This document shows positions 20 to 59,339 of a stretch of DNA of 64,000 bases, piece after piece. The stretch comes from Octopus vulgaris (Eukaryota): assembly GCA_951406725.2 (NCBI GenBank), contig OX597822.1, positions 62,434,001 to 62,498,000 of the forward strand, written 5' to 3'. Both the position numbers and the translations under genes were made by a program. Below the pieces are notes generated by a model. It did not search any database. It saw only the letters and a list, made by a program, of their open reading frames with translations, and was not told where the DNA came from. Every line of letters begins with the position of its first letter. The stretch's first letter is position 1.

Positions 20-1824
20 CATAGTATTGTTGTAGAGAGTGTTTAAGAAAACAAGAAAATTATGAGTTTGCTTTAAAATTTGAGATTACATAAACAGTAT
101 GTTACGTAGGATATGGGCAGTTCCCATGAGCACTATGTTTTGAATTTCTGCCATTCTGAGGTTTTCTGGTATCTGAGCTAGGTAGCAATCAGCCCGTTTT
201 GCTATCATTCCCAGGGCACCTATGACAACAGCTATTGTTTTAGTCTTCAGGTTCCACATTTTGCCAATTTCTATTTCAAGATCTTTATGCTTGCTCAGTT
301 TTTGGTACGTCTTGACAGATACGGTTATATCGATTGGGACAGCCATATCAATGAGGAGGCATGAGTTCTGTCTAAAGTATTTCAATATGTCTGGCTTATT
401 TGCATCTATTTTTCTATCAGTTTGAATGGTGAAGTTCCAGAGGAGTGAGATGTGATCATTTTCAAGCACTGGAGGTGGATTGCCATCCCACCAGTTTTTA
501 TCATGGGGCAGATCCTGGCTTTTGCAAATTATTGTACAGCTCTATCATTCCTGTTGAGATACTCTGTAGGCGCAAGTAGACTGCACATGGAGACAACATC
601 ATCAATGGTTTTATTTTGTTGTTGACATATATAACATGTTGGGCAACTGCCGTTCTTTAATATGTTGGCCTGGTAGTTTCTTGTAGGTAGGCATTGATCT
701 TGGGCTGCTATGATAAACCCTTCTGTTTCTGATTTTAAGACAGAAGCCATTAACCATTGATGAATAAGGGCTTTGTCAACATCGACATTATTAGCTCTCT
801 TTGGGTATTTGCCATTCAGAGGTTTTTCATGCCATTTATCAGTAAGAATATCTAAAGTAGCAGTTTTAGCACGGGTTTTCATACGCTTAGCTTTTTCTTT
901 GCTTCTTTCTAGTACGTCTAATTCTGGAATTTGTTGTATTTGAAATTCACTTATATATTCCTTTGCCTGTTTTGTTTTTGAGTATGATACTTTCTTGTTT
1001 TCATGTTTTGAGACAAGTTTTAACATCCAGTCCTCAGAATTTTTCAGGCAGGTGCCAAGGCCAATTGTGGCAATATTCATTGTTAATTCCAGTTGTAAAA
1101 CTCCACGGTCTCCCACTTTTCTTGGCAGATAAAGTCGTTCTATATTTGCCTTAGGGTGGTACATTCTATGCATTGTCAACAATTTTCGTATTTTTCTGTC
1201 AAGATTACATATTTCAGTAATTGACCAGTTAATGATATTGAAACTATAAGTCATGACTGGTATGGCTAAATTATTGATCGCTTCGATCCTGTTTCTTGCA
1301 TTCAGCTCTGTCTTGAGTATTGCTCTCACCCTGCGATAACATTCTCTTCTGATCCTTTCCCCTCATCACTGAATGTTTGATTCCGTCCCCTTCAAACATC
1401 CCTAGGTATTTGTAGCTCTCTGTTGGTCCTAACTCCTTTATGGCATTCTGCTGGTCAAGGTTAACGTTAGATGTTTCTGTTATTTTTCCTTTGATAGAGG
1501 TAGCTTTTGCACATTTATCGAAGCCAAATAGCAACCTGCTGTCATCATTAAATTGTTTAAAAATCGTTAGTAACCCCTGGAGTTGTTGGCCATTTTTTGC
1601 AAAGAGCTTTCAATGATCCATTTTTATCAAACATTTTATAACCTTACTGTACATCATTGAGCAATTTCAAGAGAGGTAGACAAAAGAGGAGTGGTGATAG
1701 AGAGTCACCCTGGAAAATGCCACATGAAATTCTTACATCTCCAGCATTAAGAGATTCATTATTGTCACGATGTCATACTTACAGACAAAAAGTTTCATAG
1801 AGTAGGTGCTATTTTACACATTTC

Positions 1825-6732: not shown

Positions 6733-6986
6733 CAACTTATCACTGACGAGCAGAAAATTCTTATGAATTAACTCTGAAATCGGGGCCGATATGATAATAA
6801 CGGAATTTTTTAGAAGTTTCTGGTGGCTTACAATATGGTTATTGACGATTTGTCAACTTTCGGCATATTTGGCATTAGAATTTTTTTTGCCCTTGTTTAT
6901 AAGTTGTTTATAAATTTAACCATTAAAGGTATTTTTTAATATGCTGGCCATTGATAGAATTTTTTCGAAAATTTTTATCCTATATT

Positions 6987-8659: not shown

Positions 8660-11600
8660 CGTATATATGTATGCATGTATGTATGTATGTATGTATGTAT
8701 GTATATATTTATCATTATAATTGTTTTCGTCTTGGAATGCGGCCATGTTGGGGCACCATCTTGAAGAATTTTTTGTCGAACGACACGACTCCTGTATGTT
8801 TTTAAACATGCTATTTATAGTAAAGGTCTCTTTTGCCAAGCCACTAAATGACGAGAAATGTAAAAGCACCAACACCAGTTGTGAAGCAGTGATTGGGACA
8901 ACGTCACAAGATATACACACACACACACTATATATGTGTGTATATGTGTGTGCGTGTGTGTGTGCTTGTGTGTGTGTATGTGTGTGTGTATGTATACATA
9001 TATATATACGCATTGGTTCCATTACCAATATTGTGATTCTACCTTATTTTAGTGATCGTTGTCGCATGTACCTGAAAAAAAAAGCTCCTTTTCTTAAATT
9101 GGATATTGGCCTCAAACATTATTATATAAAATGTTTCGTGTATGGATCCATGTGGTAGCGTCAATGAATCCGATCTGATCGTAATTCTATATCTTGATCG
9201 ACTCGATTTAATTCCTCTTTAATTATCCCCCTGCATCTTCAGATGACGTACTTGTGAAAATTTTATTGCCAGTGTAGTTAACCTCTTCTGAATATATATT
9301 CTCGTAAACATCGTACTTCAAGAGTTATTCGAAGTTACCGCAGATTAGGATCATGAGAAGGAGGTGGAAATTGCTTAAAGATAGTTACATGAAACCCAAT
9401 GAACGAAGTAACATGCCAGCAACTGTCAACCCAATACTTGTATCAATTTGTTAAAGATTTAGATGTAATTTCAAGGCAGTTTTTCCTCAGTTATATCCAC
9501 ACACAAAACCCACAGAAAATTCAAATATGGGTATTTTTATATATGGAATAATAGCGATACAGATTACACAAAAATAACTGCTGGACTTGGAAATAGCAAT
9601 ATCATAAATCACAGTATTGGACTTGTCTCTAATAAAAATACTTGCGTTTATAATCAGGGTATCTTCTTAAATATTAATTTGTTACACATTAACCACAAAG
9701 CAAGAAGTTATTTCAGTAGCTGCTTTCTGACGTGGTTTTGTGTGTGTCCATATGTAAGCTTATGGAGGCAATAGATATGAGTGTAGAGAATATTCAGCAA
9801 TAGACACTGTGTAATGCAAATATGAGGAACTTATATTTTCCTCATATGTACAATTCATCTAATGAATGTACAGGATACCATTTGTGAAGCAGGTAATGAA
9901 ACTCACTCCTTTACATTAATGCTCTTACGTTTTGTTTTTATCCGCTTTGCCGGAAAGTGCGCTGTTTCGCGTACACGTGCATAATGTAATTAACAAATTA
10001 CATTTAAGCATAAGGTGTGAGTTGAAGAGCTGGAAATACTCTCGATCGAAATGTTTTAGTCAGTTATTAAATCCACGGGGCAACGGTGTAATGGTATCAA
10101 CGGATTCTGAGATTATGCGAAGGTGACATTCTATATTGTAGAAAGTCAGGATATAGAATCTATATATACTGAATCTATATATACTGAATGCCAGGATATA
10201 GAATCTATATATACTGAAAAATACAAACAGCAAGATATTGGTTTCACATTTTAGTACAAAGCTAGCCCGCCGAGGTCGGCTTTACCTTTCATCCTTCCCC
10301 CAAAATTTTGGGCCTTATGCCTAGAGTAGAAAAGATTTTAGTGCAAGGCTAGCCTGGTACTAAAATGTGAAACCAGTATATAGTAGTAGTTTCATGAGAA
10401 ACGGTTATATTAAAATCATAGATATGTGTTCGAAATGTTTAAGTATCTTCCATAGAGTTACCGAATATAATTATATCGTCTAAATAAAACTAAATGGATT
10501 CAAACTTCGGGAGAGGAAGTAAGCCGATTATTGGTACTTATTTTATCGATCCCGAATTATGAAAGGCAAAGTTGACATTGAGGGAAGTTTAACTCAGAAC
10601 ACAGCAACGGACGGAATGCAACAAAGCATTTTGTCCGGCGCGCTAACGATTCTGCCTACTCGCTGCCTTATAATGTTATATTGACACAGTTTTATGTTTC
10701 AACATTCTTCAAAAGTAATTTAGTCAAATGTCTCTGAAACTTCCCTACTGTTGTTCAGTTTTGCTTAACTAAATATTGTAAGTGTTACAGCCTTCATTAA
10801 TTTAAGACATAAACCTATTTTGTTGTATTTTGTAGACAATTGCCAACCTGTAAGTAAGCAACTAATATATCATAGAACCGAGTCACTCTCCGTGAATAGA
10901 TCACATTGTAACAAATTAAAATCACAACAGACGGTTTGCCACTGATTGCGTGTTAAGCCTCTGAACAACAAGTCTCCGTATGCAAATTTTCCAAATGATT
11001 TTGCAAGCGTTATGTATATTTCATTAAGCATTAAATCAAATTCTCTCGCAGAATATTCTTGAATCCTTTTAGTCGTATTTAGATGATATAATTATATTCG
11101 GTAACTCTATGGAAGATACCTAAACATTTCGAACACATGTCTATGATTTTAATATATCTGTTTCTCATGAAAAAATGTATTTTTTTGTAAAACAATAATC
11201 AATTTATTTTAGTTACTGCATTTGATGCCATGAAATAACACCTGCTACTTCTTAAAGTCCTCAAAGTTCCAATTTCTGAATCGCAAAATATTCTGCTGCT
11301 GAGAGAAAAAGAATAGATGCGCTGATGCCGGTCACAATTATATTATTCTATTCGACCAGATCACAAAAGTTTCTACGAAGTATGAGAATAATACTGCATT
11401 ATGAAAAAGGAATTTTTCTTCTTGTTTTTTTTTTTACTACGGATGCTCATAAAATTTATTATGAGAGCCGATTATGTTCTAAAATAGTCTATATTCTCTA
11501 AAACACATTGGCTTGCTAATTTATGTGGCTGGTGCTTTTTCTGATAATGCAAGACACTTAATGAACTGTTTCATTCTTCCAATTCCTCAAGAATATTTAC

Positions 11601-13257
11601 TGCTTTCAAAATATTCAAGTTGACGTACAAAAGGTTATTTTCTATGCTACACACAACTCCATCCAATTCATATTTGAGAATGACGCGTCAACCACGAAAC
11701 CAGCTGCAACATTGTCAAAGAGATTGCGTCCCACAGCTTTTTCTTCTGTTCCAGTTATGAAGTGAATTGTTCATTCCTTCTATTAGCAGTTGTTGGGTTC
11801 TTACATATATGATAACACTACGCTTCTAGTGCAGACCAGCAGTCTGATTTAGGATTGATAATTTTGATAATTCTCGTACATAAAGAATATTTCCTGCTGA
11901 TGAGAAAAAAAGAATAATTGCGCTGATGTTAGTTATTCTACTCAACCAGATCACAAATTTTTCAACGAAGTTTCTATAGATTGTATCACTTAAATTCGAC
12001 AATGTCGCTGCAACTAAAGTTTCTTTTTCTGTTTTCCACCAAGAATGCTCATAAAATTTATTTTGAGGGCTGAATATGTTTCATACGAAAGTCTAAATTT
12101 TAAAAACCTAATGATTAATATTTTCCAAATGCCACTCTGTTTATAGAAAGTTTTCATTGAATTTTATTGTACCTAAACAGTCAGTATTTTTAATCAAATA
12201 TTTTCTACTGGCGATTAATTCATACTTACGTTAGCACTTTTCTTTTATTTGCTCTGATATCAATTCGCAGACCATTTTTTGATATCTTAAACAGTTATTT
12301 CAGATGGAAGTCTCGGTGGTACCTTCTATGAAACAGGGAGCTCAACTAATGTTTATAGAAGTGCAAAATTTTCTAAAACAACGACAAATTATGCTAAGCC
12401 GAATTGTACTTTGTAACCCTATAGGAACTCGACAATACAAGAGATCCAAACAGACAATATAGAAAACAGTATTCTTAGCTTTAATTCAGGGAATATTTAG
12501 AAAGCTTATTGGCTCAAATTTTAGTACTATCTTCAATTAGATCACTGATCTCAATTGTTACCAGTGATATTCATTATAATCGTTTCTTTTAAATGTTGAT
12601 CCCCTGTTGGTGTTCTTGAAACCTCTTGGTTATTTTCTTATAGCCCAGTCCTTACTGGAACTGTACGCCTAAGCAAATGCTATCATTTAGAAATTAAACT
12701 ACTATAATACATTTGTTCAGAGAAAGTAATACAATTGCACATACTGTTTCACTCGTGATATGTCACGCTACACAACATTTCCGGACGAAATAGTTAAGTT
12801 TGTGAAGTTAGAATTAACGATTACTGACTCAGGTTCAAATTCCAGAAGCACCCTCAAACCTCATTCTTACCTACTACAATACTATTTCTCAATCGAAACA
12901 TTCCCTGAGTAAAAGAAATAATAATGATATTTTACCGAGCATTCACATGCCTATCGCTCCAGCTGACAAAGTCTGTAGTTCAAATAGAACTATCAGCTAT
13001 GAAACTATATGAAAAACTTAATATGTGACATTTTGAGTTGAATTTAGTTGAATTGTACTGGATTAATGTTATATTATTGCTGTTAACTTCTATAAGTTTT
13101 ACAAAATGTAATTTCTTGCAATTTTTACAAGAAGAGTGTATGTTGAGATTCTTAGTTCTTTTAGTAATTCATATCCTAATGGACGAACACTAACCTATCT
13201 TCAAGTTGATGCTTCACTGTATGTAGCAGACAGAATCGTCAGAGCGCCGGAAAGATT

Positions 13258-13576
13258 TACGGAGATGTACTTGCATGGCAAGTGACCAGCTCTGAGATTG
13301 TGTGCTGGAACGAAAACAATTGCAGCGTGGAAGGTTTTTATAAGCCATTTAAGAAACACACAAAAACCGTTAGATTCACTTCAACATTTAAATTTAATTT
13401 GCCAAAATATTTTCGTCGCTTTGAGATCGCGACCTGTTCACTGACAAAATTCCGTCTCGCGGTCTCAAAGCGACGAAAATATTTTGGCAAATTAAATTTA
13501 AATGTTGAAGTGAATCTAACGGTTTTTGTGTGTTTCTTAAATGGCTTATAAACACCTTCCACGTTGCAATTGTTGT
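13258..13576. mobile_element. Fold-back insertion in a family A SINE with a 10-bp TSD
   Basis: Inverted arms are 13315-13432 and 13457-13574. CGGAAAGATT is duplicated at 13248-13257 and 13577-13586, and the SINE resumes after it. Confidence 0.85.
13400..13446 (-). ncRNA. Type I hammerhead ribozyme, G3:C8 variant
   Basis: UGUCA-GUGAACA-g-GUCGC-gaucucaaa-GCGAC-GAAA-auau-UU-UGGCA. Stems I and II pair, helix III is a palindromic loop, and the core shows a compensatory C3G/G8C change. Confidence 0.7.
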
Positions 13577-13959
13577 CGGAAAGATTGCTTTGCGGTATTT
13601 GTTCCGACAGTTCATATTCTGAGTTCAAATACCACTGGGATCAAATATGCCTTTCATCCTCTTGGGCTGCATAAAATGAAGTACTAATCTCGTACCATGG
13701 TCGACGGTATCGATTAATCCACTCAGAATTTCTGACCTTATGTTTATATTAGAAATGTTTATTAATTCTTACAGCATCTATCTTAGAAAAACCGCAGGTT
13801 ATAATAAACATTTGATAATAATCGTTTCAACTAAAAGCACAAGGCCTGGAATTTGCGGGGGGAGGAGACCAGTTGATTCCCCCCAGTCCAGTGTTTCACT
13901 GGTACTTATCGACTCCGAACGTATAAAAGGCGGAATTAAACACTTGATAATAATGATAA

Positions 13960-31724: not shown

Positions 31725-31787
31725 TTTTAAAAAATCTATACACATCTCAAAGTTTTAATACACATATAGACAATTTCATAGTTTAGC

Positions 31788-31854
<67 letters not shown>

Positions 31855-32106
31855 TAGTTTTATTTTTATAGCGTGCTTTCACTTCACAACCGAGCGCAGC
31901 TCTGTGTGCCTTGGGTATGTGCTGTGATTTGCTGTGATGCTCTGATGGTTATTGTATGGAAAGTTTTCTGCGTAGGACGTGTGCAGTACGCAGAACACTT
32001 TCTATACAATAACCATCAGAGCATCACAGCAAATCACAGCACATACCCAAGGCACACAGAGCTACGCTCGGTAGTGAAGTAAAAGAACGCTATAAAAATA
32101 AAACTA

Positions 32107-32161
<55 letters not shown>

Positions 32162-32230
32162 GTAATAGCTAAACTATGAACTTGTCTATATGTGTGCTAA
32201 AACTTTGAGATATGTATAGATTTTTTAAAA
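31725..32230. repeat. About 250-bp-arm fold-back built from an R4/Dong LINE 3' end, its (TAA)n tail and flanking DNA
   Basis: Arms are 31725-31974 / 31987-32230. The centre encodes H(V)LRRKLSIQ*, like the LINE C-terminus (compare AHILRNILFM at 86-469). Confidence 0.85.
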
Positions 32231-44707: not shown

Positions 44708-45249
44708 TAGGGTTATTCAAAAGGAATGAACCGATTCCATTACGCAATATTTTAATTAGGACAAGCAGTAGAAAACTCCAGCTAAGTCACAAATATTTAC
44801 TCACACTCAACTTTTATTTCCTATCTTACAAGTGTTCAATGTGGCCACCACCTGCAGCACTGGCAACATCAATGCGATAAGAGAATTCTTCCAAGACTCG
44901 TATCAGCATATCACGATCCAGGGACTTGATGACTGTTGTATAATTTTTTTTGTGTGGATATGTAAAAGATCGCGTTTATGTTCCACCACTACTCACTTAC
45001 CACGATGACCTTAAACATCGAATAACAACAGCGATCAACTTAGTGAATCGTGATATGCTGATACGCGACTTGGAGGAATTCGCTTATCGCATTGACGTTG
45101 ACCGTGCTGCAGATGGTGGCCACATTGAACTCTTGTAAGACAGGAAATAAAAGTTGATTCGGAGTAAATTCCTATGACTTAGCAGGAGTTTTCTATTGCT
45201 TTTCCTTATTAAAATATTGTGTAATGAAATCGGTTCATTGTTTTTTAAT

Positions 45250-45255
<6 letters not shown>
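44708..45255 (+). mobile_element. Tc1/mariner-type element with long (~230 bp) TIRs that include the transposase C-terminus
   Basis: ORF 44950-45138 CGYVKDRVYVPP...DDLKHRITTAI...YRIDV.RAADGGHIE. Diverged inverted arms at about 44710-44938 / 45022-45254. Confidence 0.8.
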
Positions 45256-48366: not shown

Positions 48367-48575
48367 GTTATGAGATGTAATGGTGTCAGTAAGACCCAAA
48401 GGTGTCAAGTAATGCTGAGTAAGTTCTATGACCATAGTTAAGATCCAGGTTCAGTGATTATGCGAATAAGGAGTCCACCATAGGTCGTATATCAGCATGT
48501 TATATATTAAAAAAAATTCAGAATGAGATAAGAAAACACCAAGGCGGTGAAGATTTCAGAGCATTTATAAATAGG

Positions 48576-48621
48576 TCTTACAGCTGTTTCCGGGATATTT
48601 ATTATATCCTTTCATCGGAGA
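48576..48621 (-). ncRNA. Type I minimal hammerhead-like motif (U4C core) inside inverted repeat 48519-48574 / 48665-48718
   Basis: UCU-CCGAUGA-aaGGAUA...UAUCCcg-GAAA-cagcug-UA-AGA. Stem I is short. Confidence 0.6.
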
Positions 48622-49407
48622 TGGTGTGAGAAAATGTGATTAAGCAATAGTTAATTTAAATCTTCTATTTATAAATGTTCTAAAATCTTCACAGCCTTGG
48701 TTTTTGTATCTCATTCTGTAAAAAATTATATATATATATATATATAATAATAAATATTAGGGAATAAATCCAAATTTACAGGGAAAAAAATCAGATTTAG
48801 GATTAAATCCAATTTTATAGTAAAATATTATATAATATTAATTAGAGACAGAACCACTATTTTGCAAAACAAACAAGGAAAGACTTAATCAATACATAAG
48901 ATTTTAATAAAAAGTCAAAAAAACCGCCACTACAATTGTTTCTTGTCCTGATCGACAATCTTCAGGTGGACTTCCAATTTTCAAGTCATTTTCAAATTAT
49001 GAAGTGAAATTAAATTCTATCCGTTAAAAACGTCAAACAAAATTACGTTACCATAGGAACCCAACATATGTATAAAAAGTATTCCCGCTCTGGAAATCAT
49101 TCAAAATTTTAAGTCAGTTGAAACTGACTTGAAATTTTGAATGATGTTCGTTTCCAGAGCGGGAATACTTTTTATACATATGTTGGGTTCCTATGGTAAC
49201 GTAATTTTGTTTGACGTTTTTAACGGATAGAATTTTTAACGGATAGAATTCAACTGACTTGAAATTTTGAATGATGTTCGTTTCCAGAGCGGGAATACTT
49301 TTTATACATATGTTGGGTTCCTATGGTAACGTAATTTTGTTTGACGTTTTTAACGGATAGAATTTAATTTCACTTCATAATTTGAAAATGACTTGAAAAT
49401 TGGAAGT

Positions 49408-49450
49408 CCACCTGAAGATTGTCGATCAGGACAAGAAACAATTGTAGTGG
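49408..49450 (+). ncRNA. Canonical type I minimal hammerhead ribozyme; identical copy on the minus strand at 48927-48969
   Basis: CCAC-CUGAAGA-UUGUC-gaucag-GACAA-GAAA-caauug-UA-GUGG, in the ~290-bp-arm fold-back 48829-49547. Confidence 0.88.
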
Positions 49451-49535
49451 CGGTTGTTTTGACTTTTTATTAAAATCTTATGTATTGATTAAGTCTTTCC
49501 TTGTTTGTTTTGCAAAATAGTGGTTTTGTCTCTAA

Positions 49536-49594
<59 letters not shown>

Positions 49595-52574: not shown

Positions 52575-53168
52575 GCGTGTGTGTGTGTGGTTGTGGCTGT
52601 TAATCTATGTGTGTGGTTGGGCTTAGTATCGTTTGAGGTCATTGGAAGAATTTATAGTAAGAATTTTGGTAGGAGTGGTTGCCTGTTGTGTGTCTAGCAT
52701 CCTAGATAATGTGCCTTCAGATCATGTTCACCACTTACGGCCACCAAGTGTCAACGGCGTTACTGCGATTTCGTCGATGGATCTACGTCCGCATAGATTA
52801 TATTTTAAATGATTGATACGGGACACGGAGTGTAACTAGAAGTTTTATTAGCACAAAAGTCGTTTCGGTTTCACTCTGTGTAGATCTCTATTTGGTGTGG
52901 GACGATGTAATGACATCAGATGCAATGCATAGTGCAGTCAGCCTCATCAGGTGAGGTAACATGCTTCAAAAGTAATCAGATTGACATTTTCTTTTCGCTC
53001 CAAGCTATATGCTGGTGGTGATTCTAAGGAATGATTCTAGGATGCTAGACACACAACAGGCAACCACTCCTACCAAAATTCTTACTATAAATTCTTCCAA
53101 TGACCTCAAACGATACTAAGCCCAACCACACACATAGATTAACAGCCACAACCACACACACACACGCA
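52574..53168. repeat. 133-bp inverted repeat (52574-52706 / 53036-53168) enclosing an HHR-like motif (52852-52953, minus)
   Basis: The arms give identical peptides on opposite strands. The spacer reads CAC-CUGAUGA-GG...CC-GAAA-cgacuu-UU-GUG. Confidence 0.8.
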
Positions 53169-53377: not shown

Positions 53378-53412
53378 ATTTCTGACGAAGAGCTCCGCTC
53401 GAAACGTTAAAT
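53378..53412 (+). ncRNA. Penelope-type minimal hammerhead ribozyme in a PLE-like 3' end (about 53170-53510)
   Basis: AUUU-CUGACGA-a-GAGC-ucc-GCUC-GAAA-cg-UU-AAAU. Confidence 0.75.
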
Positions 53413-53525
53413 CCTCCTTCTTTCTTTCCTTTCCTGAGCGTCCAATACCATTTACTTATTCCACGTCCTCGCATTGTTGTGCTTTCTCTTTGTTCATGTT
53501 TGGATTAACTATATATGCATATACA

Positions 53526-53627
<102 letters not shown>

Positions 53628-53641
53628 CATATATATACACA

Positions 53642-53673
<32 letters not shown>

Positions 53674-53676
53674 CAC

Positions 53677-53707
<31 letters not shown>

Positions 53708-53730
53708 CATATATATATACATATATATAC

Positions 53731-53761
<31 letters not shown>

Positions 53762-53762
53762 C

Positions 53763-53821
<59 letters not shown>

Positions 53822-55085
53822 ACTGAAATTCATAGAAAAACAACAGACGAAGACAGGTGCATGAACAACAAGCAGGTGTATTATTAGTTCGCTCAGGAGA
53901 GTGAGAAGGTCTTTTACGTTTGGAGCCTACGCTCTTCAGCAGAAAGGAATAAGAGAAAATAAACAGTGAGAGTATTAAAAAAAAACTTGTGAATTTAGCG
54001 ATGAAGCATGGCGACTGCTTGGGGGGAAAAGGTTTGACAGGAGGGATAGAAAGAAGGGGAGATATGAAAGTACTGGTGATCCCAAAACGAAGGTGCACGT
54101 ACATGTGTGTGAATGTGAGAGTGTGTAAGTTTGTGTGTGTGGATAAGGGCTAGTGACTTTGACGTGTAAATGTCTGCATGTATGTGTGCCTCTGTAATGT
54201 GTGGGTGCGTGGATGATGGTGTGCGGGTGTGCAGATGATGGTGTGTGGTGTGGGTGCTGGAAAGTGGTCAGTGCAAGTGTGTGTGGAGCGATGTGATGTG
54301 GTGGTGTGGGTGGAGGGAGTATCAGTGAAGAGAGAATGTAGGTAGGAAAGAAGAGAGGAAGTAGGTGTCAGAGCAAGAGAGGAGAGGAGAGGTGAGTAGG
54401 AGTGAAGAGAGGAAGTAGGTGTCAGATGAAGAAAGGAGGGGAGTCAGATGAAGAGTGAAGGGGAGTTGAGCCCATGTGGCGCAAAGGAGCGAGGAGAGAA
54501 GATTAATATCTGTTTATGGCGAAGGCGGTTGTCTGGATGACCCCTGTGCAAAGACAATTCAAACACAGACAGGTGTTGTAGTGAATGACCGGTGGAGTGG
54601 AAATGGCGTTAGGCCTGGGTGTCATTGCCGAGTCTGATGTCTCGGGGGTGCTCCGCGAACCGGTCAGCCAAGCGGCGTCCCGTTTACAGATGCATAGAGA
54701 AGGGCAGAAAGAGCAGGAGATGCAGTAAATAACGTTGCTAGAAGTGCAAGCAAAGTAGTCGGTGTATGTGATAGGGGCAATGATGGGTACCTGTGAGGAA
54801 GTTAGTGTTGGAGAGGTAGGGGCAAGTGGGGCAGCGTGGTTGGAATCAGAAGGACGAGCCAGGGTAGAAACTGTGGACCAGAAGATCACGCTGGTTGTGG
54901 GCTCGTTTGAATGAGGGAAGGGGTAGCTTGGGAAAGATGTGTGAGGTGGAAGGGTCAGACAGGAGTCGCTCGAAGGCTCGGAGAATGGTGCGTTGGAGGG
55001 ACAGGGTGCATGGGTGGTAGGTGAGGGGAAACGGGAGACGGGCAACGGCGTCGTGGGTGCGGCGAGAGACAGCAGTGGCACGGTA
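53822..55085 (-). mobile_element. Penelope-like element 3' part: GIY-YIG endonuclease remnant plus 3' UTR with a decayed HHR (53911-53946)
   Basis: FACTSSNVIYCISCSFCPSLC(I), then in a shifted frame TGRRLADRFAEH. Upstream PLTYHP...FPKLPLPSFKRAHNQRDLLVHS is a PLE RT-EN linker. The HHR reads CUUU-CUGCUGA-a-GAGC-guag-GCUC-cAAA-cg-UA-AAAG. Confidence 0.85.
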
Positions 55086-56125: not shown

Positions 56126-56410
56126 GGCGCAATGGCCCAGTGGCTAGGGCAGCGGACTCGCGGCCGAGGTTTCGATTCCCAGACCGGACGTTGTGTGTGT
56201 TTATTGAGCCGAAAACACCTAAAGCTCCACGACGCTCCGGCAGGGGGTGGTGGCGACCCCTGTTGTACTTTTTCACCCCTAACTTTCTCTCACTCTTTCT
56301 TCCTGTTTCTTGAGTAACGCTGCGATGGACTAGTGTCCCATCCAGCTGGGGGGAACACATACTCCATAGAAACCGGGCCCATGAGCCTGGCTAGGCTTGA
56401 AAAGGGCGCA
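56126..56410 (+). mobile_element. Family C tRNA-derived SINE
   Basis: GGCGCAATGGCCCAGTGGCTAGGGCAGCGGACTCG...GGTTTCGATTCCC. Confidence 0.85.
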
Positions 56411-56944
56411 AAAGAAGAAAGATGTTATATAATTATAATTCCTTTACTTTCCGTGTTCAAATCCCGCTCTTGTTAACTTTATATTGCGTCCTTCTAGAGT
56501 TAAAAAAAGAGTATTAGATACTGGAATTAATATAACCGATTAAATCACTCCCTTAAATGTAAAATGTCGCAGCTATTTAAGAAATCAAAATATGCGCATC
56601 AGAAAAGGACACCTGAGTAATCCATGCACTACTTTATATTCTCTCTCCCTGCCTTTTCTAGCTTGGCCTTTGCTTCTCCCTCCAGCTGTTCGCGTATCAC
56701 GAGTAGTCAGAAACTCCTGACTCACTAGTCTTCCTACCTTCTGGTCATTCATATTATATCCATCACAAAGACCAAAATTAAATTCACAAGTCCACGTTTT
56801 ATCTGAAGTCGTTGAGTCTCAAACATTCATTAGAAACATTAATAATCCTTATTCTTTGCTATTGGTAGATCCGAACTCACCATGGTCGCATTCACCTTCC
56901 TTTACAACAGCCTCATTAAAATATTTATATGAAACGTATCTTTG

Positions 56945-57317
56945 AAGCACTCCGTCGGTTACGACGACGAGGGTTCCGGTTGATCCGATCAAAGGAACAG
57001 CCTGCTCGTGAAATTAACGTGTAAGTGGCTGAGCACTCCACAGACACGTGTACCCTTAACGTAGTTCTCAGGGATATTCAGCGTGACACAGAGAGTGACA
57101 AGGCCAGCCCCTTGAAATACAGGTACAACAGAAACAGGAAGAAAGAGTGAGAGAAAGTTGTGGTGAAAGAGTACAGCAGGGATCACCACCATCCCCTGCC
57201 GGAGCCTCGTGGAGATTTTAGGTGTTTTCGCTCAATAAACACTCACAACGCCCGGTCTGGGAATCGAAACCGCGATCTTACGACCGCGAGTACGCTGCCC
57301 TAACCACTGGGCCATTG
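56945..57317 (-). mobile_element. Family C tRNA-derived SINE with a different tail
   Basis: Reverse complement of the 56130-56315 head and body. The tail is shared with 51460-51600. Confidence 0.85.
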
Positions 57318-57460
57318 TATAATGTATAAAAAGTATTAAATGATACCGCCTTATGTCAAAATTAAATTATCATTAGCCAGCTACAGGGATATTTTTATAT
57401 GTAGAAATTTAAACTACTTAGTCGATTATTTCCGTACAAAATGATTAATATTTAGATAAT

Positions 57461-59263
57461 CTATTACATTAACCTATTCTTTCAATCTAGAAAACGAAAT
57501 ACTTTTATGGTTTAAATATTACATACCGACGGCTTTTTCGTTTTGCATATGATATTTCAATATAATTTTGTATATCAAATTTCAATATAATTTTCCATAT
57601 ATTTCAATATGATTTTGTATATCATATTTCAATATGATAACATTATTAACTATATATCATCATAAGTCATTAATCAATAAATCAACAATAAATGCATCAA
57701 TTCTCTGTAATAAACTATATCTACAAATTATAATGATGTGTCATTAATCATAATCAATCTTTAATTAACATCAATTACCATTAACGTAAGCATCGTTATT
57801 AGTCATTCCCATTAATTACTATACATTATAACCAATCATTAATCATCAACTTTAATTCACCTTTAGTTATTAATCACTGCTAATTCCGTCACTCATCACG
57901 ATCAATCACAATGAAACCTTATCGTCAAAACATTAATCATCAATCTTTATTCGAATGTCATTACTCATCACTAATCAATGATCACCGTTAATCAACGTCA
58001 ATATAATCATCTTCAATTATAATCACCATCATTATCGTCATTTTCATCATCGTTCATCAGCATTGTGTGTGCGCGTGCGCGCATTTAAAAAGAGAAAAAT
58101 TGGCCGATTCACTTAAATGGAGATATTGGTTTGTGGTACACGTTCTAGCTGTCTGCGTTAGAGGTTCAATTACAACCAAGGTCAAATTTATCATTCATTC
58201 TTTCGCGATCGGTAAATAAAATAAAGGCCATGTACTTGTGCCCTCCCTCTTTCTCTCTCTTTCTCCCTTCTCTCTCTCTCTCTCTACCCTCTCTTTCTCT
58301 TTCTCGGTCTGTCTGGATAAATCGGCTATGATAAGATTAAGGAGGGATGGGCTCCACTATGTCGAAAAATGCCCGTGGCAGACTGCATAATGGCGGTGCC
58401 CCAGCATGGCCACAGCTCATAAGCTGAAACTAGAATCAATCAATCAATCATACCCAAACAGTGGCGCTACCACTCCAGCTGGAATTCAGAGCTTACACAC
58501 ACACACACACACACACACGCACACTCACACACACACACACGCATACAGTAATGGTTGTTACCACCTCAACATGGTTGTTCTGCATAGAACAGTGTTACTA
58601 GTCTTTTTAACCTCGGGAGGACACCTCCTCCAGCTGGCTAAAGACACAATATCTGTATCTGATATATTGCAAGCAAGGGAGCGAACAACTCCCATCTAGC
58701 TACGACAGGACTGGTAGACCAGCTGGTTTCAGGGTCTCACTCTTCCTCAGTACTCGCACACCTGTCTGCTAGAAATGGTAGTCGTTCGTCCCAGTTCGCA
58801 ATATATAAAAAAAAACAAGTGACTCACGGCAGCTGTCTTGCAACAAGCAAAGTCGCTAGTTCTAAAATATTTATAATAGATATAAGTAGTAACTCTACTG
58901 AAAAATAATGGTTTTTACCACCTGGATATGGGGATGGTGGTGTTTATAACTATAAAAATTAACAAAGAACATTTACTGTGAAGACACATCATTATAATTT
59001 GCAGATATAATTTATTACAAAGAATTGATGCATTTATTGTTAATTTATTGATTAATGATTTATGATGATATATAGTTAATAATGTTATCATATTGAAATA
59101 TGATATACAAAATTATATTGAAATATATGCAAAAATTATATTGAAATTTGATATACAAAATTATATTGAAATATCGTACAAAATGAAAAAGACTACGGTG
59201 TGTAATATTTAAACCATAAAAGTATTTCGTTTTCTAGATTGAAAGAATAGGTTAATGTAATAG
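57461..59263. repeat. ~280-bp inverted repeat (57461-57742 / 58983-59263) with a 1.24-kb spacer
   Basis: The arms are near-identical reverse complements and contain internal ATTTCAATATAATTTTGTATATC sub-repeats. Confidence 0.9.
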
Positions 59264-59339
59264 TAAAAACAAAATATTTATACTTTGTATTCTAGTTTTG
59301 ATGTCTTTATTGTTATTTTTCAATAACAAGTTGCACTAG

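Follow-up and report, generated by a model that had tools for sequence, protein, structure and literature searches.

Our results suggest that the 319-bp insert at 13258-13576 of the window, the 64-kb stretch of Octopus vulgaris DNA that was analysed, is very probably the product of a single integration of a non-autonomous Penelope-like element (PLE) of the pLTR type. This reading draws on the anatomy of the insert and the target-site duplication around it and, among other copies of the family, on outer ends at two preferred places, inversion points that vary, the occurrence of solo copies and a high abundance, all of which were observed.

Results

A fold-back insert interrupts a SINE

The insert lies within a SINE and is bounded by exact 10-bp direct repeats (Table 1). 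The repeated 10-mer, CGGAAAGATT, has 2 occurrences in the whole window, and its chance from base composition is about 1e-6 per position. Six other SINE copies in the window could be aligned in register with the SINE flanks of the insert, and each of them has the corresponding 10-base stretch once. The host SINE, called 'family A' under a label of the earlier note's own, is old, since the 10 other SINE matches found by BLAST in the window are just 68-74% identical to it. Its 3' part contains GAGTTCAAA near 13621, which we take to be B-box-like; ARAGORN found no intact tRNA gene in the window.

Contigs of four public sequencing runs (X2, X7, X4 and X5; three organism labels, three studies) were compared with 12950-13456. 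Contigs bridged the left junction of the insertion in X2 with 0 differences and in X5 with 2. The runs showed no empty allele, the flank contigs of X7 and X4 ending at 13253 and 13161, both short of the junction. Note that the last T of the left duplication copy may also be the terminal base of the element; several contig pieces of the family begin at 13257.

Table 1. Coordinates of the insert, its parts and its host SINE in the window.
Feature	Position	Strand	Basis or remark
Host SINE, 5' part	13225..13257	+	BLAST and alignment to other window copies
Target-site duplication, left copy, 10 bp	13248..13257	+	Ends in ATT
Long element copy, 199 nt	13258..13456	-	5' end central, 3' end outward
One-sided 3' extension ('tail'), ~55 nt	13258..13312	-	No mirror in right copy
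Minimal type I hammerhead motif	13398..13448	-	Descriptor scan and fold
Head-to-head (5'-5') junction	13454..13457	.	Sequence against loose ends of the family
Inverted 5'-truncated short copy, 120 nt	13457..13576	+	From stem II interior to about the family's short outer end
Target-site duplication, right copy	13577..13586	+	Exact repeat of left copy
Host SINE, 3' part	13587..13720	+	BLAST, alignment to window copies

Two copies are joined head to head

The insert is composed of a minus-strand copy and a shorter plus-strand copy whose 5' ends meet in the centre and whose 3' ends point outward. The long copy falls ~9 nt short of the common 5' boundary of the family. The short copy lacks the 5' half of the catalytic core described below, its first base being the one after G10.1. 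The inverted arms, 13311-13432 and 13457-13578, are 97% complementary, with 4 mismatches across the 120 nt of the right arm, and the junction holds either one extra C or a GT microhomology with a 2-nt slip. The tail, which the earlier note had not mentioned, is confined to the left copy.

The remaining anatomy agrees with what the earlier note had described: a 319-bp insert that splits a SINE, a perfect 10-bp duplication, one copy with a G3:C8 hammerhead that is complete as a motif, and an inverted partial copy that starts inside stem II. It had also proposed that the whole hairpin arrived in one integration event, and the duplication, which encloses the entire unit, fits this. In a family as abundant as this one, two copies could also come together through separate insertions, or a solo copy could be duplicated in inverted form at a later time, and PLEs tend to insert beside earlier copies (PMC6765202). 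We consider such a history extremely unlikely: both copies lie within a single duplication with no target DNA in between, and head-to-head pairs of this geometry are found again at many loci and in a second hammerhead family.

According to the annotation of octopus repeats in PMC13282606, a distance of 0.09 corresponds to 25 million years. If this scale holds and the arms started identical, the 3-4 arm changes on which the estimate is based would give, as a rough inference, an insertion age of a few million years.

The long copy carries a putative hammerhead ribozyme with a G3:C8 core

Read on the minus strand, stem I of the motif has 7 bp, one of them U-G (13448-13442/13404-13398), and is followed by the core GUGAACA (G3..C8 A9, 13441-13435), with an extra bulged G after A9 at 13434. 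Stem II has 5 bp (13433-13429/13419-13415) and the closing pair G10.1-C11.1, GAAA lies at 13414-13411, and stem III has 2 bp within the palindrome AAUAUU. The cleavage triplet is UUU, and the predicted cut falls between 13405 and 13404. The descriptor used, which admitted C3:G8 or G3:C8, matched 5 sites in the window, this one scoring best, and gave 0 matches in 20 of 20 block shuffles. Rfam at its gathering threshold gave 0 matches across the 64-kb window, and the fold z-scores are modest (-1.6 and -2.3).

The motif has the base between 9 and 10.1, the G10.1-C11.1 pair and the palindromic helix III, the traits that PMC4209133 gives for PLE hammerheads (there with a palindromic 15.2-16.2/loop 3). 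In the predicted fold of a lone copy the mean pair probability is 0.63 for stem I and 0.97 for stem II, and the element ends 13258-13262 and 13451-13455 pair over 5 bp. In that of the whole insert, the pair probabilities of stems I and II are 0 and 0, and a long hairpin of -196 kcal/mol forms; the ribozyme fold is thus predicted to be lost within the complete hairpin. This copy is probably inert now, because a read-through transcript would form a 120-bp hairpin that abolishes the ribozyme fold. Unconstrained co-folding of two ribozyme copies did not give a dimeric hammerhead; the palindrome duplex alone reached -3.8 kcal/mol.

The U-G pair of stem I is mostly U-A in other copies (13402 C>T, 65-77% of depth in the contigs of the four runs). 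Among the 40 variants listed of 80, loop II varies at 13421-13427, while GAAA, stem III and the triplet are free of variants. This pattern lends weak support to a conserved hammerhead structure. That no listed variant falls in the core at 13428-13447 was given no weight, since the 40 of 80 variants listed do not extend past 13427, near the end of the compared stretch at 13456.

A C3G/G8C swap partly rescues cleavage (PMC11167929, in the element PAc; PMC8495972), and U3-A8 covariation is described in PMC4209133 and PMC3088659. No natural G3:C8 core was found in a literature search that included PMC3088659 and PMC6155905 and took in the papers on PLE variants incompletely, and no novelty claim is safe for this core.

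The family is abundant and its inversion point varies

BLAST found no second copy of the family elsewhere in the 64-kb window. In the four runs, depth summed across the body of the element reaches a maximum of 1.5-5.1 million, where the unique flank has 8-104. This body/flank ratio of 4x10^4 to 2x10^5, which is one of depth and not a copy number, places the family among the very abundant repeats. The outermost bin of the tail reaches 5-18% of the peak depth, a drop due in part to the divergence of this copy from the family at 13287-13290. In RNA runs, at most 0.20 of the query words were present.

The outer ends fall into two groups, pieces that start at 13257-13262 and loose ends before 13314 (X2) or 13319 (X7), the flanks of the latter being scattered and AT-rich. 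On the inner side, 80-87 contigs in each of the 4 runs share ~9 letters past 13455 and then scatter, with an agreement of 0.46-0.50 among the loose ends after the shared letters, and one subfamily departs at 13449. The element is therefore about 210 nt long, and its 5' boundary, which lies just upstream of the ribozyme, is fairly sharp; the compared stretch ended at 13456, and this edge is seen via loose ends only.

Among the 15 joints listed of 82, 5 are internal skips and 10 are strand changes. Nine of these ten strand changes have one side at 13439-13455 and must be head-to-head, because the compared stretch ends at 13456; their partner sides are 13314, 13352, 13366, 13380, 13399, 13401 (twice), 13403 and 13417. 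To these the present locus adds 13432. The nine joints have depths mostly near the single-copy level, and three are common to all four runs. One contig (X2 record 7) holds a solo copy, flanked on either side by other DNA. Two joints, 13364/13261 and 13421/13260, are possibly tandem, their kind not being given; the locus itself contains no partial tandem pLTR.

The earlier note had looked to variable inversion points with a constant outer end and variable duplications as support for retrotransposition, and to identical arms in all copies with a fixed duplication length typical of a DNA transposon superfamily as what would refute its reading. The inversion points do vary (partner sides from 13314 to 13417 in nine of the ten strand changes, among the 15 joints listed of 82), and the outer ends are constant, at two places and not at one. 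Since the inversion points range across about 100 nt and there are solo copies besides, arm length is not fixed. As far as the arms go, the outcome is in favour of retrotransposition, and PLE-type inverted-end insertion is supported.

These data also bear on whether the insert could be a MITE or fold-back DNA transposon, with arms that serve a transposase as terminal inverted repeats. A near-perfect inverted repeat of 120 bp, together with a clean duplication and a lack of coding capacity, would suit such an element, and among about 20 further local inverted repeats in the window some are MITE-like. However, the left arm is not terminal but has a 55-nt overhang, so that the fixed terminal inverted repeats of a MITE are not found at both ends, and the hammerhead motif has PLE traits. 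A MITE with fixed arms is refuted by the variable inversion points, spread over ~100 nt, together with the solo copies, and the reading as a MITE or fold-back DNA transposon is on the whole largely refuted and very unlikely.

Open reading frames and database searches

No open reading frame for a reverse transcriptase (RT) or GIY-YIG endonuclease is present at the locus, and searches for homologs, in metagenomes and in Pfam found no partner that shares the pLTR. A 66-codon plus-strand frame in the left copy gave 6 candidates, none at E<=0.01, with no longer homolog and no Pfam match, and a 113-aa frame across the insert had no Pfam match. With no homolog or Pfam support, the open frames were treated as probably due to chance. 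A scan with the 22-nt core motif gave 1 match, in a metagenome locus (L001, 566-595) on a contig of 57% GC, with 28/30 bases alike over the 5' half of the ribozyme. It was rejected as a relative, having neither the second half of stem II nor GAAA after the match, which is probably a chance one.

Other elements in the window

In its SINEs and other repeats the window looks like octopus DNA. A second head-to-head fold-back occupies 48829-49548, with canonical CUGAAGA hammerhead motifs in both arms, which are 99% alike. It has an internal partial duplication, terminates in (TA)n, and ends roughly 100 nt past the predicted cut; extra sequence beyond its left arm, to ~48745, may be a one-sided tail. 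This second hammerhead family has the same geometry as the 13258-13576 insert. Adjoining it is a small fold-back at 48510-48725 (arms about 48519-48574 / 48665-48718) with a hammerhead-like motif near 48619 on the minus strand, which has a CCGAUGA core, a palindromic stem III and a U4C change in one arm; this motif was read by eye and has no descriptor match. Related solo hammerhead-like motifs with a CTGACGA core occur at 6743 (+) and 62416 (+), the latter passing the descriptor and the former failing it.

A minimal hammerhead motif lies at 53382-53420 (+), with a decayed one on the opposite strand at ~53905-53945 (-), near 53940. The frameshifted frame at 54447-54799 (-) presumably resembles a Neptune-type GIY-YIG C-terminus; this endonuclease-like remnant found no support in Pfam, NCBIfam, homolog or atlas searches. 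Together, the features of 53382-54799 are possibly a decayed autonomous PLE. Frameshifted ORF pieces at 86-1609 (-), with a weak zf-RVT match (E 0.084), resemble what we take to be the RT and C-terminus of a non-LTR retrotransposon.

At 31725-32230 there is a nested palindrome in which two repeat ends stand head to head with (TAA)n tails outward, the flanks beyond being inverted too. Long inverted ends were seen at 44713-45251, 57435-59289, 56130-57317, 52575-53167 and 10390-11172; those of 52575-52706/53036-53167 are 100% alike. Some of these elements are probably MITEs or DNA-transposon remnants.

Discussion

A model for the insertion

We infer the following scheme; its enzyme, the way in which priming and joining proceed, and ribozyme activity of any kind are all proposed. 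A Penelope-like RT/GIY-YIG protein, probably a dimer, would nick both strands of the SINE 10 nt apart, and reverse transcription would be primed from both nicks. The first cDNA would start at the distal site, 147 nt 3' of the predicted ribozyme cut, which would give the tail, and would run almost to the 5' boundary of the RNA just upstream of the ribozyme. The second would start at the proximal site, about 90 nt 3' of the cut, and stop in stem II. The two cDNAs would then be joined at their 5'-side ends, and gap filling would produce the target duplication. Priming from both nicks of a 10-nt staggered cut is favoured because the two outer ends of the family lie 86-91 and 147 nt past the predicted cut and because the target duplication ends in ATT, the latter in one case only.

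The same Penelope-like element could have acquired its inverted arm by snap-back, the first cDNA folding near its end and being copied as DNA. In support of this, the arms are 97% alike and share a minority base at 13402 (where the family majority is T, 65-77% of depth), and there is short microhomology at the junction. However, snap-back gives no reason to stop near the short end of the family, and the right arm ends opposite 13313, where solo copies end at 13314-13319; moreover, PAc extends both strands in vitro (PMC11167929). Snap-back is therefore improbable, and independent priming on RNA is favoured over it because the short arm stops near the family's short end.

Beyond this locus, the family might be a natural G3:C8 hammerhead family that can still cleave as a dimer and has been amplified to something like 10^4-10^5 copies as ~210-nt run-off cDNAs, 'strong-stop'-like products running from the RT start sites to the 5' end of the transcript, with the fold-backs recording two-strand priming at the two start sites. 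We put this forward as a tentative idea, and a rather doubtful one. If true, such a run-off family would put the Penelope integration model to the test in vivo on the scale of a genome, and would also give the host a large supply of perfect hairpins of double-stranded RNA.

Several points count against the Penelope-like reading itself. No RT or endonuclease ORF could be linked to the family, the four runs showed no empty allele, and the joints listed are 15 of 82. The 5' end of the family looks fairly sharp, where published descriptions have PLE copies truncated at the 5' end to varying extents. The tail of ~55 nt compared with the published 30-40, the lack of a match in Rfam and the modest fold z-scores also count against it.

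The single locus is of little weight, being a tidy example of a published Penelope-like insertion anatomy. The family is of modest value: a clean duplication in non-repetitive target DNA, together with its many fold-backs, could test how integration is resolved, and PMC11167929 leaves integration beyond first-strand synthesis open. A G3:C8 core in a very abundant family, a long tail and a sharp 5' boundary make it mildly unusual.

Comparison with known systems

As described by PMC8557442 and PMC4209133, this insertion anatomy is already known and is the published norm for Penelope-like elements. According to Craig et al. 2021 (PMC8557442), the 5' end of a PLE insertion often carries an inverted copy that is itself 5'-truncated, and a tail of 30-40 bp is present at one of the two ends. 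The insertion units given there for Penelope/Poseidon, Neptune and Nematis are like ours in the inverted 5'-truncated copy joined at the 5' end, which in our family varies in length among copies (nine of the ten strand changes among the joints listed). The endonuclease-bearing units are also like it in the one-end tail and in having the hammerhead in the pLTR. They differ in the tail, 30-40 there and ~55 nt here, where it is optional and the family has two outer ends, and our locus has no ORF and no partial tandem. In D. virilis, Penelope has inverted terminal repeats of varying size, and its copies are flanked by target duplications (PMC2377424).

For metazoan PLE hammerheads, Cervera and de la Pena 2014 (PMC4209133) report low in vitro activity and mostly solo motifs, with some pairs on opposite strands at distances of 100-700 bp. 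These minimal type I motifs share with ours the base between 9 and 10.1, the G10.1-C11.1 pair and the short palindromic helix III. They have C3-G8 or U3-A8, whereas the present motif has G3-C8, with 7 bp in stem I, 5 bp in stem II and a UUU triplet. In the curated annotation of Octopus vulgaris (PMC13282606) there are 31 Penelope-like families with recent activity, and the present family may already be in its repeat library.

Non-LTR retrozymes (bioRxiv 10.64898/2026.07.22.740005) are, like this family, short, non-coding and PLE-derived, with a type I hammerhead. They form tandem arrays with at least two complete ribozymes, whereas this locus has no such array but an inverted pair with one complete motif.

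Finally, the Anolis Poseidon element PAc (Frangieh et al. 2024, PMC11167929) prefers ATT, and it nicks both strands and extends them. Its RT begins at two internal sites that define the tail, it is predicted to dimerise, and it does not need ribozyme cleavage. It is autonomous, with a canonical core and an ORF that starts in stem II, and the insert has no comparable evident ORF. The two are alike in that both have two defined 3' ends on the downstream side of the ribozyme, with a start site some 90 nt beyond the cut and ATT in the target.
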